This document shows positions 18,528 to 28,415 of a DNA stretch of 64,000 nt, piece by piece. The stretch is taken from contig OY970192.1 in assembly GCA_963708135.1 (NCBI GenBank), forward strand, positions 3,392,001 to 3,456,000. Direction: 5' to 3'. Under the pieces are notes generated by a model, which had not been told where the DNA came from, did no database searches, and saw only the letters and a program-made list of their open reading frames with translations. How positions within the stretch are numbered: the stretch's first letter is position 1; each line of letters starts with the position of its first letter. Origin of the DNA: an uncultured Gemmatimonadales bacterium. GTDB taxonomy: Bacteria > Gemmatimonadota > Gemmatimonadetes > Longimicrobiales > RSA9. The position numbers and the translations under genes were made by a program.

Positions 18528-19397
18528 ATGGCGGCGCGCCGGCGGGGCGTCAATCGAGCGGCGGAGGCACGAATGGCGCGCGCGACGGCGCACGAGGTCT
18601 TCAACAGCGTGATGGCGTCCGCCCGCGCGGAGCTCGACCGCTCCTCGCTCGGCCTCGCCTTCTCCGGGCTGTCCGCGGGGCTCAACATCGGCTTCAGCTT
18701 CGTGGCGGTCGCCGCCGTGCTCGGCATCGCGGGCGCCGGCGGCTCCGGCGCGCTGCTCGCCGCCGTTGCGTATCCCGTGGGATTCATCATCATCATCCTC
18801 GCCCGGGCACAGCTCTTCACGGAGAACACGCTGACGCCCGTGCTCCTGGTGCTCGACGAGTTCACGCGCGAGAACCTGCTGAACACGCTGCGTCTCTGGG
18901 GCGTCGTGCTCGCATCGAACCTGCTCGGCGCGTTCCTCTTCTCGCTGCTGCTGGCGGAGTTCAGGATCGCGCCGCACATCGAGCTGGGCTGGCTGGTCGC
19001 GGCGGCGCGCGCGGCGTACGAGGGAGCCTGGGGCGAGCAGTTCGTGCGCGGACTGCTGGGCGGCTGGCTCATCGCGATCATGGTCTGGACGCTGCACGTC
19101 GGCGAGAGCGCGCTGGCGGAGATCGTCCTCGTCTGGATCGCGGCGTTCCTCATCCAGCTCGCCGGCTTCAGCCACAGCATCGCCGGCGCCGTGGAGGTGC
19201 TCTTTCTCGCGCACCAGGGGGTCATCACCTACCTTGACTGGTTACTGCGGTTCCAGATCCCGGTCACGCTCGGCAACATCGCCGGCGGCGTCGTCTTCGT
19301 GAGCCTCGTCAACTACGCCCAGGTGGTCGGCGCGGGACACGACGTCGAGGTCGCGGAGCGGCGTGAGGAGCTGGAGGCCGCGAAGGGAGAATCATGA
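18528..19397 (+). CDS. Formate/nitrite transporter family protein
   Basis: QLFTENT, SNLLGA, FSHSIAG, TLGNIAGG. Confidence 0.9.
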   Translation: MAARRRGVNRAAEARMARATAHEVFNSVMASARAELDRSSLGLAFSGLSAGLNIGFSFVAVAAVLGIAGAGGSGALLAAVAYPVGFIIIILARAQLFTENTLTPVLLVLDEFTRENLLNTLRLWGVVLASNLLGAFLFSLLLAEFRIAPHIELGWLVAAARAAYEGAWGEQFVRGLLGGWLIAIMVWTLHVGESALAEIVLVWIAAFLIQLAGFSHSIAGAVEVLFLAHQGVITYLDWLLRFQIPVTLGNIAGGVVFVSLVNYAQVVGAGHDVEVAERREELEAAKGES

Positions 19398-20131
19398 GGA
19401 GACACGCTTTCATCGTCCTGGCGCTCGCCCTCTCCGGCGGCGGCGCCGGCGCCGCGGCCCAGCAGCCGGGCGCGGGCGCGGCCGCCGCCCGGCGCCCGCC
19501 GCGCACCGTCACGGTCAGCGCGACCGCGAGCGTCCAGCGCCAGCCCGACCAGGCGGCCGTCTCGCTGGCCGTCGAGACCCACGCCGCCACCGCCAAGGCC
19601 GCCGTCCAGCAGAACGCCGAGCGCATGAACGCGCTCATGGCCACGCTCCGGAAACAGGGGCTCGCGGAGAAGGACATCCGCACGGTCGGCTACGACCTCT
19701 CCCCCGAATACGAGCAGCGCACCGGGCCGCAGACCACCCCGCCCAGGATCGTCGGCTACCGCGCGCAGAACACGGTGCGCGTGGTGGTCTCCGGCGTCGA
19801 GAAGGTCGGCCCGCTCCTGGACGCCGTCGTCGCGAGCGGCGCGAACCGCGTCATGGGGATCGACTTCCAGCTCGCGGATCCGCTGGCGGCGCGCACCGAC
19901 GCGCTCAAGGCCGCCGTGGCGCAGGCGCGCCGCGAGGCCGAGGCCGTTGCCGGCGCCGCGGGCCAGCGGCTGGGAGAGCTGCTCGATCTCTCCACGGGCG
20001 GCGCGGCGCCCCCGCCGCGGCCCATGTTCGCCGCCCGCGCCGAGATGGCAGCACCCACGCCGATATTGCCCGGTGAGCTCGAGGTCACGGCCTCCGTCAC
20101 GGCCGTCTACGCCCTGGAGCCGGCGGGGTGA
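19394..20131 (+). CDS. SIMPL (DUF541) periplasmic protein
   Basis: Signal peptide; TVTVSA..PDQA, GYRAQNTV, GANRV, AVAQARREAE. Confidence 0.88.
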   Translation: MRRHAFIVLALALSGGGAGAAAQQPGAGAAAARRPPRTVTVSATASVQRQPDQAAVSLAVETHAATAKAAVQQNAERMNALMATLRKQGLAEKDIRTVGYDLSPEYEQRTGPQTTPPRIVGYRAQNTVRVVVSGVEKVGPLLDAVVASGANRVMGIDFQLADPLAARTDALKAAVAQARREAEAVAGAAGQRLGELLDLSTGGAAPPPRPMFAARAEMAAPTPILPGELEVTASVTAVYALEPAG

Positions 20132-20661
20132 GCCTCCCCGCGCCGTGGCGCGGCCTTACGGAAAACGCCGCCCGGACCGAGGCGGCCTCCCCCGATCCGC
20201 GGCTCCGCGGGCGCACCTACGCCATTCCCTTCGAGCGCGTCTGGCGCGCCGCGCTGGCGCTGGCGGCCGAGCCGCCCGGCTGGCGCGTCGTCGGCGCCGA
20301 CGACCTCGAGGGAGTCATCCGGGCGGAGACCACCAGCCGCCTGTTCCACCGTCTGGCCGACGTGCAGATCCGCGTCACCCTCGACGAGAACGCGCAGACG
20401 CGCGTGGACGCCCGCTCCGCCTCCCGCACGGCGCGGGCCGACCTGGGCGCCAACGCCCGCCGCCTGCGCCGCTTCTTCCGCCGCCTCGACCGCGCGCTCG
20501 CCCGCGGCGCGGCAAGCTCCGGCTCCAGCTCCGGCACCGCTCCCGCCACCCCGCCGCCGCCCTCCGCCCCGCCGGCGCCGGTGCGGCGGACGGGCGAGGC
20601 AGGGACCGGCGCGACCGCTTCGGCCTCCGCGGCGCGCAATCCGGTGGCGGACCGCGCCTGA
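20128..20661 (+). CDS. DUF1499-like protein
   Basis: RVDARSASRTARADLGANARR motif. Confidence 0.75.
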   Translation: MSLPAPWRGLTENAARTEAASPDPRLRGRTYAIPFERVWRAALALAAEPPGWRVVGADDLEGVIRAETTSRLFHRLADVQIRVTLDENAQTRVDARSASRTARADLGANARRLRRFFRRLDRALARGAASSGSSSGTAPATPPPPSAPPAPVRRTGEAGTGATASASAARNPVADRA

Positions 20662-20666
20662 GCCGC

Positions 20667-21524
20667 ATGGACGTCATCGACTTCCACACGCACCCCTACC
20701 GCCCCGAGGACCTCGCGCCGGGCACGCGCGCATTCATCCGCGGCGTCTCGCGCGCGCTGGCCGAGCATGGCGATCGCCTGCGCGAGCCCGCCTACACCGC
20801 CGAGCTGCTGCGCGGGCAGGGGATCTCCCGCGCGGTCGTGCTGCCGGAGCACTGCCCCGCCACCTCGGGCAACGTCCGCACCGAGCGCGTGCTCGAGTAC
20901 TGCGCCGAGGTGCCCGAGTTCTTCCTCCCGTTCGCCTCGGTCGATCCGGTGACCGACCCCGAGCCCGCGCGGCTGCTGCGCGACTACGCGGCCGCGGGCG
21001 CCGTCGGGCTCAAGCTCTACCCGTCCTACCAGTTCTTCTACCCGAACGACCCGGCCCTCTACCCGATCTACGAGGCCTGCCAGGAGCTGCGGCTCCCGCT
21101 GCTCCTCCACATCGGCAGCTCCGTCATCCCCGGCACGCGCATGAAGTACTGCGACCCGATCCACCTCGATGACGTGGCCGTGGACTTCCCCGACCTCGCC
21201 ATCGTCATGGCCCACGGCGGCCGCGGCCTGTGGACGGACGCCTGCGGCTTCCTGGCCGCGCACCACTCGAACGTCTACATCGACGTGACCGGCCTCGTCC
21301 CCGAGCGGCTGCTCCAGCTCTTCCCCCGCCTCGAGCGGATCGCGCACAAGGTGGTCTTCGGCAGCGATTTCCCCGCCATGCCCCGCTCGCCCGGCGAGAA
21401 CGTCCGCACCATCGCCGGGCTCGGCCTCGCGCCCGACGCCCTGCGCCGGATCCTGCGCGGCACCGCCGCCCGCCTGCTCCGCCTGGACGGCGACGCACCC
21501 GCCGACGACCCCGGTGATGCCTGA
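20667..21524 (+). CDS. Amidohydrolase_2 family protein
   Basis: IDFHTH, GLKLYP, LLHIG, MAHGG, FGSDFP. Confidence 0.9.
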   Translation: MDVIDFHTHPYRPEDLAPGTRAFIRGVSRALAEHGDRLREPAYTAELLRGQGISRAVVLPEHCPATSGNVRTERVLEYCAEVPEFFLPFASVDPVTDPEPARLLRDYAAAGAVGLKLYPSYQFFYPNDPALYPIYEACQELRLPLLLHIGSSVIPGTRMKYCDPIHLDDVAVDFPDLAIVMAHGGRGLWTDACGFLAAHHSNVYIDVTGLVPERLLQLFPRLERIAHKVVFGSDFPAMPRSPGENVRTIAGLGLAPDALRRILRGTAARLLRLDGDAPADDPGDA

Positions 21525-22836
21525 GCTTCCCGGCACCGCCCTGTCCCCTGCGGTCGCCCGGCTCGAGGGGGCGCTCGTCGTCGCCTGCGACGACGCCGGC
21601 ACGATCGCGCCGCTCACGGTCGTCGTGGTGGGCGAGCGCATCGCGGCCGTGGGCGAGCCCGACGCGATGCGTGCGCGCTTCCCCGCCGCCGACGCCATCG
21701 ACTGCACCGGCCGGGTGCTCCTGCCGGGACTCGTGAACGCGCACCTGCACGCCGAGCTGCACGTGCTCAAGGGGGCCGTCGAGGAGCTGGGGCTGCACGA
21801 CTGGGAGGAGGCGGACGCCTTCGACGGCGCGCTGGGCGTGCTCTCCGCGACGGATGGCCGGTGGATCCAGCGCGCGGCGATCCGCGCCGCGCTGGCGGAC
21901 TCGCTGCTCTCCGGCACCACCGGCGTCGGCACCTACGGCGTGACGCTCGGCGCGGACGAGGTGGCCCGCGAGGAGATCCCCGCGCTCGGCCTGCGCGGGC
22001 TGGTCACGATCCGCGATCCCGGGTTCGGGGCCCGCGCCTACGACCCCGTCGTGCCGCACGTCTACCGGCTGCACGCGGAGGAGGCGCTCACGGAGGCGGA
22101 GCTCGCCGCGGCCGCGATCGCCCACGCGCGCGGCGATCGGCTGGTCATGCACGCCGCGGAGACCGAGCACCGCATCTCTCTGGCGCGAGAGCGCTTCGGC
22201 GCGAGCACGATCCGGCTGCTCGAGGCGCGCGGGCTGCTGTCCCCGCGCATGCTGCTGTCCCACGCCGTCCACGTTGACGAGGAGGAGCGCGCGCTCGTCG
22301 CCGCGCGCGGGGCACCGGTCCTCAGCTCGCCCGCGGCGGAGCTCAAGCTCGCCGACGGCATCGCCCCGGTGGCGGACTACCTGCAGCGCGGCGCGACCGT
22401 CGCGCTCGGCACGGATGCGGCCGTGTGCAACAACGGCAACGACATGTTCCTGGAGATGCGCCAGCTCGGCCTCGTGCAGAAGCTCCGCTGGGGCGCGGCG
22501 GCCATGCCGGCGGAGCAGATCTTGCGCATGGCGACCCGGCACGGCGCGCGCGTGCTGTACGGCTCCGGGCGCGCCGGGATGATCGCCGAAGGCAGGCTGG
22601 CGGACCTGGTCCTGGTCAACCTCGGCACGCTGCGAATGCAGCCGGCGGTGCACCGCGACGGCCACTCCAACGTGGCCGCGAACCTCGTCTACGCCGCCAC
22701 CGGCCAGGACGTTACGGACGTGATGATCGGCGGGCGCTGGATCGTGCGGGGGCGGCGCCTCCGGACCGCGGAGGAAGACGCGGTGGTGGAGGCGCTCGCG
22801 CGCGCGGCCACCGCCCTCTACGACCGGATCCCCTGA
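21517..22836 (+). CDS. Amidohydrolase (MTA/SAH deaminase-like)
   Basis: PGLVNAHLH, HAAET, SHAVH, LGTD. Confidence 0.85.
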   Translation: MPELPGTALSPAVARLEGALVVACDDAGTIAPLTVVVVGERIAAVGEPDAMRARFPAADAIDCTGRVLLPGLVNAHLHAELHVLKGAVEELGLHDWEEADAFDGALGVLSATDGRWIQRAAIRAALADSLLSGTTGVGTYGVTLGADEVAREEIPALGLRGLVTIRDPGFGARAYDPVVPHVYRLHAEEALTEAELAAAAIAHARGDRLVMHAAETEHRISLARERFGASTIRLLEARGLLSPRMLLSHAVHVDEEERALVAARGAPVLSSPAAELKLADGIAPVADYLQRGATVALGTDAAVCNNGNDMFLEMRQLGLVQKLRWGAAAMPAEQILRMATRHGARVLYGSGRAGMIAEGRLADLVLVNLGTLRMQPAVHRDGHSNVAANLVYAATGQDVTDVMIGGRWIVRGRRLRTAEEDAVVEALARAATALYDRIP

Positions 22837-22839
22837 GCG

Positions 22840-25338
22840 ATGACGAAACCCACCAGACTCCCAGAGCTTCCCCGCCGCCTCCCGGTCCTGCCGCTGCGCA
22901 GCACCGTCGTCTTCCCGATGGGCGCGGTCGGCGTGCAGATCGGCATGTCGAGCTCCCTCGAAATGCTCTCCGCCCACCCCGCCGACCCGCTGCTCCTCGC
23001 CCTCGTCGTGGCGCCCGGCGGGCCGGACGACCCGATCGAGGCCAGGGGGCTGCGCAAGATCGGCATGGCCGCCCGCCTCTCGGACCGGCTGAACCTCCCC
23101 GGCGGCACCGTGCAGGGCACCCTTCAGGGGCTGCAGCGGATCCGGCTCAGCGGCGTCGCCGAGACGGAGGGCTATTTCATGGCCCGCGTCGAGGCGGCAC
23201 GGGAGGAGCCCGCGCCGGAGGGGACGGCGGAGACGCACATCGCGCGCATCCTCATCACCCTCGAGGCGCTCTCCGCCGAGGTGGAGCGGATCCCCCGCGA
23301 GGTGCCGCGCATCCTGCGCATGAACGTGGCCGATCCGGGCCGCTTCGCGGACCTGGTCGCGAACCTGGCCAACTTCAGCGTCGCCGGGAAGGAGGAGGTG
23401 CTGCGCCGCCTCTCCGTGGAGGACCGGCTCCGCTACATCGAGGACGAGCTCGAGCGGCAGCTCGAGAAGGTCCACCGCATCCAGGAGCAGCAGAACGCCG
23501 CGGCCGCCGCCGCGGAGGCGGCGCCGGAGACGCCCGAGCCGCGGGCGCGCCCCGCGGACCGCGCGGAGGAGCTCCGCCTCGAGATCCACCGGCTCCAGGC
23601 GGAGCTCGGGCAGGTCAACCCGGTCGAGCGCGAGGCCATCGAGGTGCTCCGCCGGATCGAGACGGCCGATCTGCCCGCGCGCGTGGCCGCGGACGCCCGC
23701 ATCGAGGTCGAGCACCTGCGCGGCGCCGGCTCGAGCGCGGAGGCCACGGACAGCCGCAACGCCATCGAATGGCTGCTACGCATGCCCTGGCGCTCGCACG
23801 CCGCCGGCGACGCGTCCGGCCTCTCGCTCAAGCGCGTGAAGGAGGAGCTGGACCGCGAGCTGCTCGGCCTCGAAGAGCCCAAGGACCGGCTGCTCGACTA
23901 CCTCGCCGTCGCCAAGCTGCGAGGCGACCTGCGCGGGCCGATCCCCTGCATCGTGGGGCCGCCGGACTGCGGCAAGAACTCGCTCGTGCGCGCCCTGGCC
24001 CGCGGCCTCGGCCGCCCGCTCGCGACCCTCGAGCTCGGCAACCGCGGCGAGGCCCAGCTCATCGGCCAGCGCCGCACCCGCCCCGGCGCGCAGCCCGGCA
24101 AGATCGCGCAGGCCCTGCGTGACGCCGCCGTGCGCGATCCCGTGCTGCTGCTCCACGAGATGGACGAGATCGGCCTCGGCAAGGTCGAGGGCGACCCGAT
24201 CGAGGCCATGGAAGAGGTGCTCACCTGGGACGGCCGCGAGACCTTCACCGACCGCTATCTCGACCTGCCTTTCGACCTGAGCGACGTCCTCTTCATCGCC
24301 ACCGCGCACGACTTCTACCGCATCCCGCGCGAGCTGCGCGAGCTCATGGTCGAGATCCGCCTCGCCGGCTACACCCCCGAGGAGAAGGTCGACATCACGG
24401 AGCGGCGCCTGCTCGGCCGCCTGATCGAGGAGCACGGGCTCCAGGAAGGCGACGTCGCCTTCTCCGAGCCCGTCCTCTTCTTCCTCGCCCGCGGCTACGC
24501 CCGCGATGCCGGCCTCGGCGCCATGCGGCGCGCCCTCTCCACCCTGCTCCGCACCCGCGCCCGCGCGAAGGCGCAGGGCGAGATGGGCACCTGGGAGTTC
24601 GACCCCGACCGCGTAGAGAAGATCCTCGGCCTGCCCCGCTACGTCGCCACTCCCGCCGAGAGCGCCCCCGAGATCGGCGTCGTCACCGGCCTCGCGTGGA
24701 CCGCCGCCGGCGGCGAGCTCATGTTCATCGAGGCGCTCCGCATGCCCGGCTCCGGCCGCCTCATCATCACCGGCCTGCTCGGCGACGTCATGCGCGAGTC
24801 CGTCAACGCCGCCTACTCCTACGTCCGCAGCCGCGGCGATGCGCTCGGCATCAGCGAGGAGATCTTCACCGACCACGACGTGCACGTCCACTTCCCCGTG
24901 GGCGCCATCCCCAAGGACGGCCCCTCGGCCGGCATCGCCGTCACCCTCGCCATCGCCTCCAGCCTGGCCAACCGCCCCGTCCGCCACGACATCGCCATGA
25001 CCGGCGAGGTCACGCTGCGCGGCAAGGTGCTCGAGATCGGCGGCGTCAAGGAGAAGGTCCTCGCCGCCTACCGCGCCGGGCTCCGCGAGATCATCCTGCC
25101 GCGCAACAACGAGCGCGACCTGCGCGATGTCCCCGACGACGTGCGCGACAAGATCGAGTTCCACTACGTCAACCGCATGGACGACGTGGTGAAGCTCGCG
25201 CTGCTCCCCGCCATCGCGTCCTCGCGCGGCGGGAAGAAGGGCCGCCGCCCCGAGCCCAAGGAGCGGCGCGACGAGGAGGAGCCCCACCGCCGCCCGCGCA
25301 CCACGCCGCGGGCGGCCCGGAGCGGCGAGCGCGACTAG
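22840..25338 (+). CDS. lon: Lon (LonA-type) protease paralogue with degenerate AAA+ module
   Basis: LON_N domain, AAA-like region, intact PKDGPSAG and IGGVKEK Ser-Lys dyad. Confidence 0.9.
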
Positions 25339-25469
25339 AGGCGAGCCCGGGCGGGTGCGCGGCCGCCTCTCGATTCACGGGCGGGCCCGTGGTACCTTTC
25401 GCCCGCCCGTGCGCGGGACGGACCCCGCGCGCCGGACCCGATCCCGAGTCCGAGTCCCGAGTCCCGAGT

Positions 25470-27035
25470 ATGGTCTCCACGGCGCAGACCGCCGTCTCGA
25501 TCCTCTTCGGCGCCATCGCCGGCGGCGTGACGAACGCCGTCGCCGTGTGGATGCTGTTCCACCCGTACGAGCCGCCGAACGTCTTCGGCCGGCCGTTCCG
25601 GCTGTTCCAGGGCGCCATCCCGAAGAACAAGGCGCGCCTCGCCGCGGCCGTCGGCCGCACCGTCGGCACGCAGCTCCTGACCTCCGAGGACCTGGCCCGC
25701 ACGGTCGGGCAGCCGGGCTTTCGCGAGGCCTTCGACGAGCGGCTGTCCGCCTTCCTCGAGGGCGTCCTGGAACGCGAGTGGGGCTCGCTCTCGGAGCTGC
25801 TCCCGGCTCCGCTCCTCGCCGAGCTGCGTGTCGTGCTGGATGGCGCGGCCGAGGGGCTGCTCGAGCGGCTGGACGAATACCTCGCGGACGAGGAGTTCCG
25901 GGGCGCGGCGCACCGCTGGGCGCGGGATCTCGCGGACGAGCTGCGGGACCGGCCGCTCGCGCAGCTGCTCACCCCCGAGCGGCAGGCGGACCTCGCGGCG
26001 CGCGCGGACGGCTGGGTCGCCGACGTGCTCGGCGGCGACGGCTTCCAGCGCGCCATCCAGGACTACCTCGACCGCAGCGCCGAACGCCTGCTGCGGCCGG
26101 GGCGCACCTTCCAGGACCTCCTGCCGCAGGGCCTCGTCTCCGCCGTCGAGCGCGCCATCGGCGGCTACCTGCCGCTCGCGCTCGAGCGGCTGGGCGGGAT
26201 GCTCGAGCGGCCGGAGGTCCACGAGCGCCTCGAGCGCGTGCTGCACGAGATCCTCAACCGGTTCATGCGCGACCTGCGCTTCCACCAGCGCCTCGTCGCT
26301 TCCCTCGTCATCACCCCCGAGACCATCGACAAGGTGCTCGCGGCCATCGAGCGCGACGGCGCGGGCAAGATCTCCGAGCTCCTCCAGGAGCCCGAGATGC
26401 GCGACGCCACCGCCCGCAGCGTCAACGACGCCATCGTCGACTTCCTGCGCCGGCCCGTCAACGCCACCCTCGGCCGCCCCGGCGAGCCGAGCGTCGAGGA
26501 GGCCAAGGACACCGTCTCCGGCTGGGTCCTCGGCGTGGCGCGCGACGAGCACACGCGCGCCTTCCTCATCGAGCGCCTGAAGGCGACGCTGGCGTCCGCC
26601 GAGCACCGGACCTGGGGCGACCTCTTCCGCCACGTCCCGCCCGACCGCATCGCCGACGCGCTTGTCTCCGCCGCCCGCTCCGAGCGCGCGCGCCAGGTCT
26701 ACCGCGAGACCACGGGCCGCCTGCTCGACCGCGCCCTCGACCGCCGCATCGGCCGCCCCATCGACCTGCTCGGCGAGGACGCGGCCCTGCGCATCGAGCG
26801 ATCCCTCGCCGAGCCGCTCTGGGGATGGCTCCAGGCGCAGGTCCCCGCCGTCGCCGGCAGGGTCGACATCGCCGGCAAGGTCGAGGAGCGCATCCTCGCC
26901 TTCCCCACCGCCAAGCTCGAGGCCCTCATCCGCAACGTCACCGAAAAGGAGCTCCGCCTCATCGTCCACCTCGGCTACCTCCTCGGCGCCATGATCGGCC
27001 TGCTGTCCGCGCTGACGGGGTATCTGTTCCGGTGA
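25470..27035 (+). CDS. DUF445 family membrane protein
   Basis: GGVTNAVAVWMLFHP, QGAIPKNK, EKELRLIVHLGYLLG. Confidence 0.88.
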   Translation: MVSTAQTAVSILFGAIAGGVTNAVAVWMLFHPYEPPNVFGRPFRLFQGAIPKNKARLAAAVGRTVGTQLLTSEDLARTVGQPGFREAFDERLSAFLEGVLEREWGSLSELLPAPLLAELRVVLDGAAEGLLERLDEYLADEEFRGAAHRWARDLADELRDRPLAQLLTPERQADLAARADGWVADVLGGDGFQRAIQDYLDRSAERLLRPGRTFQDLLPQGLVSAVERAIGGYLPLALERLGGMLERPEVHERLERVLHEILNRFMRDLRFHQRLVASLVITPETIDKVLAAIERDGAGKISELLQEPEMRDATARSVNDAIVDFLRRPVNATLGRPGEPSVEEAKDTVSGWVLGVARDEHTRAFLIERLKATLASAEHRTWGDLFRHVPPDRIADALVSAARSERARQVYRETTGRLLDRALDRRIGRPIDLLGEDAALRIERSLAEPLWGWLQAQVPAVAGRVDIAGKVEERILAFPTAKLEALIRNVTEKELRLIVHLGYLLGAMIGLLSALTGYLFR

Positions 27036-27425
27036 TGCGGCGGCGCGGGGCGGTCCAGCTGGCGCAGGAGACAGCGTCTCCCCCGGCTTGGCGGTCGTCG
27101 TCCACGTGATCTTCAAAGGCGTTCCGTTCGCAGACGCTATGAACGCCGCCATCAAGTCCGTGGCGTGCTCATTAGCACGTACCGGCGCGTTGGCTCGCTG
27201 CCGGCCGCACCCTGGTGCATTGGCGCGCGGTTTCGCCAGGGCATCTCGTTTCACTCGCTCCCGGCTTACCTTGGGCGTTAGGTGACCACCGTCCCCTCTG
27301 GGGACGCAGGCGAAATGAAAACCGGGAGCGCACACGTGGAGACCGCTATCGCACAGCCACCGAAGCACTGGGCGCGGCGATCAGCATTGACCTACCTGAA
27401 GGCAGACATCGCAGTGGAGCGCCCA

Positions 27426-28415
27426 ATGAAGCTTCGCGTCCTGTGGTCGGTGGTTCCGATGGCGCTGCTCGTGCTCTCGACGGCTGCCGGATGCGTCTCG
27501 AAGGCGCACCCGCCGCAGGGGGAGGCGGCAAGTCCTGCGCGGCTGATGACACCCGGCGAACTCCAAGCGCTGCCGAGCTTGCCGCCGGACGAGCGAGTCG
27601 CGTACGGCAGTGACTCGAGTCAATTCGGCGAATTGCGCGTGCCGGCCGGTCCGGGCCCGCATCCGGTGGTGGTCCTCATTCACGGCGGCTGCTTCGAGGC
27701 GGCCTACGCGACCGCCCGCGACCTGGCAGCCATGGGCGATGCGCTCAAGGCGGACGGCATCGCGACCTGGAACATCGAGTATCGCCGGCTCGGCCAACCC
27801 GGCGGTGGGTGGCCGGGGACGTACCTGGACGTAGGACATGCCGTCGATCACCTGCGTGTGCTCGCCGCCGAGCACGCGCTGGACCTCAGCCGTGTTGTCA
27901 TTGTCGGGCATTCGGCTGGCGGACACCTGGCCATGTGGGCGGCGGCGCGCGCACGCGTGCCGACGGGGAGCCCCATTTCCACGGCAAGCCCTCTCCCGGT
28001 GCGCGGTGTCATCGACCTCGCCGGACCCGTCAACATGACGGCGAACATCCCACGATACCAGGCCCTCTGCCGGGACACGGTCATCACCGGCTTGCTCGGC
28101 GGCACGCCCGCGACGGTGCCGGAGCGCTACGCGCAGACCTCGCCGATCAAGCTGCTCCCGCTCGGGATCCCGCAGGTACTCGTCATTGGCGAACACGAGG
28201 AGTTCGTGCCCCGGCCGCTCGTGGAGGCCTATGCGCAGGCGGCCGCGAACGCCGGCGATCCGGTGCGCCTGATCGTCATCCCGCGCGTCGGCCACTTCGA
28301 GATCGCCAGCCCACGCGCCACCCCGTGGCCGCAGGTCGAGTCGGCAATCCGGGCCTTGCTGGATGGCAAGTTGCCTTCGGACGGCACGGTGCGCGGCGAC
28401 GGCCCACCGCGGTAG
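27426..28415 (+). CDS. Alpha/beta hydrolase (esterase), probable lipoprotein
   Basis: HGGC, GHSAGG nucleophile elbow, GHF; AAGC lipobox. Confidence 0.88.
   Translation: MKLRVLWSVVPMALLVLSTAAGCVSKAHPPQGEAASPARLMTPGELQALPSLPPDERVAYGSDSSQFGELRVPAGPGPHPVVVLIHGGCFEAAYATARDLAAMGDALKADGIATWNIEYRRLGQPGGGWPGTYLDVGHAVDHLRVLAAEHALDLSRVVIVGHSAGGHLAMWAAARARVPTGSPISTASPLPVRGVIDLAGPVNMTANIPRYQALCRDTVITGLLGGTPATVPERYAQTSPIKLLPLGIPQVLVIGEHEEFVPRPLVEAYAQAAANAGDPVRLIVIPRVGHFEIASPRATPWPQVESAIRALLDGKLPSDGTVRGDGPPR

Follow-up and report, generated by a model that had tools for sequence, protein, structure and literature searches.

The 64,000-nucleotide stretch of contig OY970192.1 that was analysed here (the window), from an uncultured bacterium of the order Longimicrobiales, encodes a paralogue of the protease LonA that has lost the residues of its AAA+ motor, keeps an intact protease site under selection and belongs to a clade with a single origin. 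Lon is the textbook ATP-dependent protease. The sequence of the paralogue and the analogy with LonC, to our knowledge the sole described ATPase-less Lon relative and one of different architecture, suggest that it is probably a serine protease that derives from LonA, cuts without ATP hydrolysis and has an AAA+ ring turned into a non-hydrolysing scaffold. The paralogue is a bona fide LonA that has kept its N domain and lost its motor. Strong selection has preserved it since then in two families of an order of soil bacteria, in each beside a normal LonA, and it provides a natural experiment on the capacities of a Lon ring with its N domain when ATP hydrolysis is absent.

Motor residues are replaced and the protease site is intact

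The open reading frame of the paralogue runs for 832 amino acids with zero internal stops. Pfam assigns LON_substr_bdg to residues 14–205, AAA to 370–502 (a weak match of 40 bits), Lon_lid to 530–581 and Lon_C to 589–788, so that the intact frame and N domain (PF02190) claimed in a preliminary description of this DNA were both borne out. TIGR00763, the NCBIfam equivalog of LonA, matches from end to end with 575.1 bits, below its cut-off of 608.05, and NF008053 scores 514.7 bits against a cut-off of 891. Among solved structures, the best matches are full-length LonA proteins, with E. coli LonA (6u5z) aligned to residues 13–788 at an E value of 1.8e-150. An AlphaFold2 model built from a 60-sequence alignment had a mean predicted local distance difference test score (pLDDT) of 89.8, with the AAA+ blocks above 90 and disorder only at residues 228–236 and 797–832. 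The top Foldseek matches of this model were again full-length LonA proteins (6u5z_A, TMt 0.89, root-mean-square deviation 3.1 Å, 534 columns). The confidence of the model and these matches suggest that the AAA+ module is a well-folded domain from which the catalytic equipment has gone. The C-terminal tail, predicted to be disordered, consists of 36 low-complexity residues, both basic and acidic.

Motifs were compared by aligning the paralogue with E. coli LonA (6u5z) and with the canonical LonA of its own genome, and their states were counted in two samples, the 120 closest database homologues and 43 genes of the motor-degenerate clade taken from genomes. Every motif change listed in the preliminary description was recovered in both alignments (Table 1). 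In Walker A, D376 stands for G359 of E. coli LonA and N380 for T363, and K379 corresponds to K362. The Lys is kept in 120/120 homologues and 42/43 clade members and the Thr/Ser in 69/120 and 19/43, and the fourth residue of the motif is Asp in 80, Glu in 15 and Gly in 12 of the homologues. The pore-loop-1 Tyr has been replaced by Arg in all 120 homologues, and in the clade by Arg (38), Gln (4) or His (1), with Tyr in none of the 43. At the Walker B Asp, the homologues carry Glu (45), His (40), Gln (19) or Asp (1) and only two of the 43 clade members keep Asp; the adjoining Glu is kept in 39/43 and in 106/120. The pre-sensor-1 hairpin carries N466R in 43/43 and H472R in 41/43 clade members, and the conservation of D462 is lost. 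The sensor-1 position is occupied by Gln (103), His (7) or Asn (1) among the homologues, and eight of the 43 clade members keep Asn. No clade member has Arg at the Arg-finger position, where Leu, Phe, Met, Tyr, His, Lys or Gln is found, or at the sensor-2 position, which is Gly in 116/120 homologues and Gly (30), Glu (7), Ala (5) or Leu (1) in the clade. With six of six motifs altered, the paralogue does not qualify as having the functional AAA+ module of LonA. The loss of an aromatic residue from pore loop 2 was considered as a further argument and rejected, since the genome's own LonA and the sister clade described below also have no aromatic residue there.

The protease site presents the opposite picture. 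S696 and K739 align to the catalytic S679 and K722 of E. coli LonA, in agreement with the intact Ser-Lys dyad of the preliminary description, and each of the two residues is present in 120/120 homologues and 43/43 clade members.

Single origin, distribution and selection

The 120 closest database proteins are 65–74% identical to the paralogue and, where named, bear the labels of metagenome-assembled genomes (MAGs) of Longimicrobiales or Gemmatimonadota. A search of 1.84 billion representatives returned only a few 50%-identity clusters close to the query, below which ordinary LonA proteins form an unbroken series from about 40% identity downwards. A tree of 210 sequences (FastTree, LG+gamma, 752 columns) was built from the query, the genome's own LonA, 52 Lon genes from genomes, 136 of 150 representatives (those of 700–1000 amino acids) and every sixth of 119 close homologues. 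All degenerate sequences form one monophyletic clade (support 1.0, stem 0.347), which is divided into the query's subclade, from family f1, and a subclade from family f3 whose members are 54–59% identical to the query. The substitutions thus define a clade, a point that the preliminary description had put forward as a check, and orthologues with intact motifs, which it had named as a refutation, were found neither among the 120 homologues nor among the 43 clade members.

The sister of the degenerate clade is a LonA paralogue of family f5 with about 50% identity (pair support 1.0; loci L014–L038 and L108–L113), whose motifs are of the GPPGTGKT, RRTYVG and MIDEID type. All motor motifs are intact in the 26 sister members of the tree and in six further f5 loci, that is in 32/32 examined; one of the 26 (L025) comes from an unpublished genome (G157), and the statement stands without it. 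These results indicate that an active, motor-intact LonA paralogue gave rise to the degenerate clade by a single loss of its motor. Since their common ancestor the sister has accumulated 0.48 substitutions per site and the degenerate clade 0.86–0.91, so that the sister evolved about half as fast. The changes at the pore Tyr, Arg finger, sensor-2 Arg and Walker B Asp, together with K443, N466R and the Tyr of DHYGL, appear to be ancestral because they are common to both subclades. The change of the P-loop Gly to Asp or Glu, H341L and the sensor-1 changes are mostly limited to the query's subclade and would be later, and the loss of the P-loop Thr is also counted among the later steps. The clade holds a stepwise record of how an AAA+ motor was dismantled, in which the first losses struck the Walker B Asp, the pore Tyr and the Arg residues of finger and sensor-2, and the P-loop Gly and Thr and sensor-1 followed later.

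To follow the distribution of the paralogue, 401 genomes of the order Longimicrobiales were scored as carriers when their best match had an E value of 1e-160 or lower; the search ran with a stricter initial filter, so that the counts are lower bounds. In family f1, at least 60 of 72 genomes carry the paralogue (G326 is an additional, ambiguous case; 56/68 without unpublished genomes), and in family f3 at least 61 of 71 (61/69 without unpublished genomes), which gives 121 of the 143 genomes of these two families. The third family of the order, f2, has no carrier among 257 genomes (best match 4.4e-148 at 41% identity), and none of the listed unpublished genomes belongs to f2. The intact sister paralogue is present in 38/38 f5 genomes of the phylum sample, or 37/37 without G157.

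Selection was estimated as the ratio of non-synonymous to synonymous substitution rates (dN/dS; Nei-Gojobori method, NG86) on codon alignments, from the 14 closest of 26 pairs of the degenerate clade at 78–93% identity (eight pairs for the N domain, because of one truncated locus) and from the 14 closest of 186 sister pairs, three of which had saturated dS. For the degenerate clade and its sister, respectively, dN/dS was 0.149 and 0.054 in the N domain, 0.134 and 0.060 in the coiled coil, 0.083 and 0.077 in the AAA+ alpha/beta domain, 0.126 and 0.107 in the lid, and 0.056 and 0.086 in the protease domain, which is the lowest of all domains in the degenerate clade; the pairs share branches and are non-independent, and with dS of 0.5–1.1 the values are rough. 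Every domain of the degenerate clade is clearly under purifying selection. Identity to the outgroup f8 was 43% in the degenerate clade versus 61% in the sister for AAA+ and 32% versus 48% for the coiled coil, compared with 31% versus 34% for the N domain, 47% versus 46% for the lid and 51% versus 53% for the protease domain. A burst of change on the stem was thus confined to AAA+ and the coiled coil, after which AAA+ returned to purifying selection (about 0.08).

These data bear on the possibility that the gene is decaying in this strain only or results from an error of assembly or sequencing; nothing was found in favour of it. The frame is intact and lies in a genome assembled as a single 5.45-Mb contig, the 120 database homologues and the carriers of two families show the same residue states, and the dN/dS of each domain, which the preliminary description had asked to be checked, is far below 1. 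We regard this explanation as refuted. Selection rather than decay, which that description had inferred, is supported by the clade itself, by the missing intact-motif orthologues, by the AAA+ dN/dS and by the confident AlphaFold2 model.

AAA+ positions were considered relaxed when their conservation was 90% or more among 135 motif-intact LonAs and less than 60% in the degenerate clade; the reference set was picked by motif intactness, so that relaxation can be read on the degenerate side only. The relaxed positions include Thr380 of Walker A, Asp439 of Walker B, Asp462 of the base loop and Asp501 adjoining the lost finger, all of them Mg- or ATP-contacting positions. The converse scan for gained constraint was rejected as evidence, because the degenerate clade has far less depth than the canonical set and higher conservation is expected in it.

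The paralogue might still be an ATP-dependent protease that relies on non-canonical residues, for instance on Arg500, two residues before the lost finger, together with the Walker A Lys and the Walker B Glu. The clade retains all three (Lys379 in 42/43, Glu440 in 39/43 and Arg500 in 43/43), and databases label relatives as 'ATP-dependent Lon protease'. However, the same Arg is carried by the sister clade and by many canonical LonAs (LRDRME), for which reason Arg500 was rejected as a shifted Arg finger. In addition, the pore Tyr, Arg finger and sensor-2 Arg are absent in 43/43 clade members and the Thr and Asp positions that coordinate Mg vary freely, so that we consider non-canonical ATP dependence very unlikely.

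The names under which members of the degenerate clade are deposited are 'ATP-dependent Lon protease', 'endopeptidase La', 'S16 family serine protease', 'AAA family ATPase' and 'LON peptidase substrate-binding domain-containing protein'. The first two claim an activity that the sequences make unlikely, and the annotation of proteins called 'ATP-dependent Lon protease' calls for correction here.

A proposed Lon ring without ATP hydrolysis

The paralogue has the same fold and the same order of N domain, coiled coil, AAA+ alpha/beta domain, lid and S16 protease domain as the LonA proteins of E. coli (6u5z), Thermus (7p6u) and Meiothermus (MtaLonA, 7fd4). It is 36–41% identical to them over the full length with identical Ser-Lys protease motifs, and it branches within the LonA radiation. 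Unlike them, it is without the pore-loop-1 Tyr, the Arg finger, the sensor-2 Arg, the Walker B Asp, the sensor-1 Asn and the P-loop Gly and Thr. By descent and architecture it would therefore be classed as a LonA, yet it falls outside the tests that define LonA by function, namely the AAA+ motifs and the TIGR00763 cut-off. It also falls outside LonB, the archaeal membrane Lon, which is recognised by a membrane anchor within the AAA module and the lack of an N domain; TIGR00764 matches only the protease domain with 108.7 bits against a cut-off of 516.6.

In Meiothermus LonA, pore-loop-1 Tyr397 is reported to touch the substrate in a spiral arrangement, the Arg finger Arg484 acting in trans and the sensor II Arg541 acting in cis are reported to place the gamma-phosphate, and Asp444, Pro445 and Glu446 in the pre-sensor-1 hairpin's base loop are described as a group that interacts with ATP in trans (PMC8503904). 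The substrate-contacting Tyr, the Arg finger, the sensor-2 Arg and the base loop are all gone or altered in the paralogue. The reading as an ATP-independent peptidase, one of the two offered in the preliminary description, is preferred because the residues that couple hydrolysis and grip the substrate have been lost, because constraint on Mg- and ATP-contacting positions is relaxed and because LonC provides a precedent.

According to the reports on LonC, the protein retains GK in its Walker-A-like motif but has lost its sensors and Arg finger and is without ATPase activity; its P-loop is reported to bind phosphate and not nucleotide, and the protein to degrade unfolded substrates and to have chaperone activity (PMC3391209, PMC13069640). 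The Meiothermus taiwanensis protein (MtaLonC; 4fw9/4fwd, 'TTC1975 peptidase') resembles the paralogue in its degenerate AAA-like module, in which GK is kept and the Thr replaced, and may serve as a working model for its action. In contrast to the paralogue, LonC is without the LonA N domain and has a helical hairpin inserted into its AAA alpha/beta domain, whereas the paralogue has the N domain and an AAA+ module collinear with LonA and free of large insertions. The two match over the protease domain only (residues 634–757, E 3e-07). On these comparisons the paralogue is an independent, LonA-derived case of motor loss and not a LonC.

On this model, the paralogue would form a ring of its own, assembled via the AAA+ and protease domains, in which the hand-over-hand ATP cycle would be impossible and substrates would be neither unfolded nor translocated. 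Unfolded proteins or peptides would be cleaved after entering the chamber by diffusion or via the retained N domain, as in ATPase-less LonC. The invariant P-loop Lys379 may have kept the ability to bind phosphate or a nucleotide, which would serve as a structural or allosteric ligand, and the fixed Arg residues R414 in the pore loop and R466 and R472 in the pre-sensor-1 hairpin would point to a remodelled, static pore. The loss of ATPase activity, the homo-oligomeric assembly and the route of substrate access are thus inferred.

Several points weigh against this reading, beside the roughness of the dN/dS values. The clade retains the Walker A Lys (42/43) and the Walker B Glu (39/43), and some members keep GPPG (13/43) or the sensor-1 Asn (8/43), so that nucleotide binding, and even slow non-canonical hydrolysis, may persist. 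The protease site of LonA is switched on allosterically by the ATP-bound closed ring, and the reading leaves the activation of a motor-dead ring unaccounted for. Homo-oligomeric assembly, finally, is suggested by homology alone.

A mainly non-proteolytic role, in which the N domain and the static ring act as a holdase, chaperone or scaffold and proteolysis is secondary, would fit the retention of the N domain and coiled coil, and the chaperone activity reported for LonC in its heptameric form is a precedent for such dual function (PMC13069640). The Ser-Lys dyad is invariant, however, and the protease domain is the most constrained part of the protein, with the lowest dN/dS and 82% identity within the clade. 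A purely non-proteolytic role is unlikely because of this constraint, and a predominantly non-proteolytic one also seems improbable.

The genome also encodes a canonical LonA of 865 amino acids, 1.09 Mb away on the same contig, with all motifs intact. In this LonA, about 70 residues rich in Ala, Glu and Pro are inserted after the helix that precedes the AAA+ core and before the Walker A strand. A second Lon-like match was found in 57 of the 60 f1 carriers of the paralogue, although in G225 and G302 both matches are paralogue fragments. Canonical LonA was not found in three draft f1 MAGs, G027 (99% complete), G284 (92%) and G380 (75%), when TIGR00763 was used on all three and the genome's own LonA as query on G027; if the absence is real, the motor-dead Lon would be the sole Lon of these organisms.

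The presence of canonical LonA raises the possibility that the paralogue is a regulatory pseudo-ATPase subunit that forms mixed hexamers with it and tunes or poisons the ATPase cycle. Besides the co-occurrence in this genome and in most f1 carriers, a parallel comes from the human AAA ATPase ATAD3A, in which the G355D change of Walker A from GPPG to GPPD is reported to cut ATPase activity markedly in vitro and to be dominant-negative in mixed rings, which it poisons (PMC5393146). The substitution and the P-loop position are the same as in D376 of the paralogue, but G355D is a single change in an unrelated AAA protein, a disease mutation and not a natural fixed state. The paralogue is merely 39% identical to the genome's own LonA, and its line of descent goes back to a distinct, intact LonA paralogue, which another family carries alongside canonical LonA. 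The three drafts in which the paralogue is the only Lon found are weak evidence against obligate co-assembly, and a fully conserved protease site would be superfluous for a mere regulator. We know of no heteromeric Lon. Of the interpretation in the preliminary description, selection rather than decay stands, while the co-assembling pseudo-ATPase subunit gained no positive evidence and is unlikely.

The tree also contains a separate, neighbouring and poorly resolved group in which the dyad is intact (GPSAG/K.K) and the motor is variably broken (P0125, P0132–P0136, P0141, P0142, P0174, P0179, P0189, P0196 and P0245), for example with SHLQEG or PRREVG as pore loop and EDID or EGMD as Walker B. 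Its source names include Zixibacteria (P0125), Eisenbacteria (P0133) and Planctomycetota. The residue patterns are not those of the query's clade; P0125, for instance, keeps the pore Tyr and the sensor-2 Arg. P0125 and P0133 lie outside the clade that unites the degenerate clade, its intact sister and f8 (support 0.97); therefore the motor was lost more than once in this region of LonA, in independent events. It seems from this that duplicated Lon genes lose their motor recurrently. No description of a motor-less LonA of this kind was found in open-access papers and bioRxiv, where the work returned concerns LonC, LonBA and canonical Lon.

A more elaborate scheme would combine these observations: one LonA paralogue lineage of the Fibrobacterota–Chlorobiota–Bacteroidota group of phyla would repeatedly go motor-less (in Longimicrobiales, Zixibacteria and Eisenbacteria), and its Longimicrobiales form would be a new machine. 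R414, R466 and R472 would form a static positive gate that selects acidic or polyanion-bound substrates, the P-loop Lys would sense phosphate, polyphosphate or nucleotide to open the protease, and the product of the neighbouring DUF445 gene might be a partner or substrate. We hold this scheme to be speculative and rather doubtful as a whole.

Features of the locus and gene neighbourhood

The positions of the gene, its domains and motifs, the adjoining genes and the canonical LonA are collected in Table 1.

Table 1. Features of the lon paralogue locus (positions in the window unless a contig is named; residues numbered in the paralogue)
Feature	Position	Strand	Remarks
Amidohydro_1 gene, variable neighbour	21514..22836	+	upstream; PF01979 E 3.3e-39; stop 3 nt before lon ATG
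Motor-degenerate LonA paralogue, whole gene	22840..25338	+	open reading frame and translation, 832 residues plus stop
LonA N-terminal substrate-binding domain, residues 14–205	22879..23454	+	PF02190 E 4.1e-22; pLDDT >90
Long helical / coiled-coil region, residues 206–330	23455..23829	+	helices in AlphaFold2 model; accelerated vs sister clade
Low-complexity Ala/Pro/Glu insert in coiled-coil region, residues 228–236		+	pLDDT <50
AAA+ alpha/beta domain, residues 331–508	23830..24363	+	fold predicted as retained, catalytic and pore residues swapped; PF00004 40 bits; pLDDT >90
Walker A, GPPGVGKT to GPPDCGKN, residues 373–380	23956..23979	+	Gly4 to Asp; Thr to Asn; Lys379 kept
Pore loop 1, RRTY(I/V)G to RRTRPG, residues 411–416	24070..24087	+	aromatic Tyr to Arg414 (E. 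coli Y398)
Walker B, LLDE to LLHE (LLLHEMD, residues 436–442)	24145..24165	+	His439 for D423; Glu440 = E424 kept
Pre-sensor-1 hairpin base loop and hairpin, residues 462–472	24223..24255	+	altered from canonical DPEQNxxFxDH
Sensor-1 position, His490	24307..24309	+	E. coli N473
Arg-finger position, Leu502	24343..24345	+	E. coli R484; LLDRME to LRELMV
AAA+ lid (small alpha) domain, residues 509–585	24364..24594	+	PF22667
Sensor-2 position, Gly560	24517..24519	+	E. coli R542; GVR to GLG
Lon S16 protease domain, residues 586–790	24595..25209	+	PF05362 E 2.4e-84
Protease Ser696 in PKDGPSAG	24925..24927	+	E. coli S679
Protease Lys739 in GGVKEK	25054..25056	+	E. coli K722
C-terminal tail, residues 797–832, predicted disordered	25228..25335	+	pLDDT <50; outside every LonA alignment
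DUF445 membrane-protein gene, recurrent neighbour	25470..27035	+	downstream, 131 nt past lon stop; PF04286 E 6.6e-31
Canonical LonA, protein P0271	G000:C1:4504244-4506715	-	two adjoining TIGR00763 matches sum to 875 bits

Upstream of the lon paralogue, the window (19394–22836) holds SIMPL/DUF541, Amidohydro_2 and Amidohydro_1 genes. Across 19 related loci, SIMPL lies upstream in 15 and Amidohydro_2 and Amidohydro_1 in eight each. Two of these loci, L085 and L086, which are outside the closest subclade, have none of SIMPL, the amidohydrolases and DUF445. The SIMPL/amidohydrolase synteny was rejected as a functional link, as it is confined to the closest subclade and absent at these two loci, and it is attributed to inherited gene order. 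A scan of positions 19000–27500 gave no promoter-like site and two terminator-like sites, no more than in shuffled sequences.

DUF445 lies downstream in 10 of the 19 related loci, and four of the nine loci that miss it have less than 600 nt of flank. It also follows the intact sister gene in 7/25 loci by Pfam, of which one belongs to the unpublished G157, and tblastn adds one further locus. DUF445 is on the same strand as Lon at L018, L020, L025, L030, L032, L033, L034, L036, L071, L074–L076 and L078–L083. Because DUF445 follows both degenerate and motor-intact sister Lon genes, in part of each clade, the Lon-DUF445 adjacency appears to be older than the loss of the motor. The f5 genomes have two to four Lon-like matches each, and in 14 of them (e.g. 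G114:C2, G195:C2 and G103:C1) one contig carries the intact sister paralogue and, 30–53 kb away, a second LonA of canonical type.

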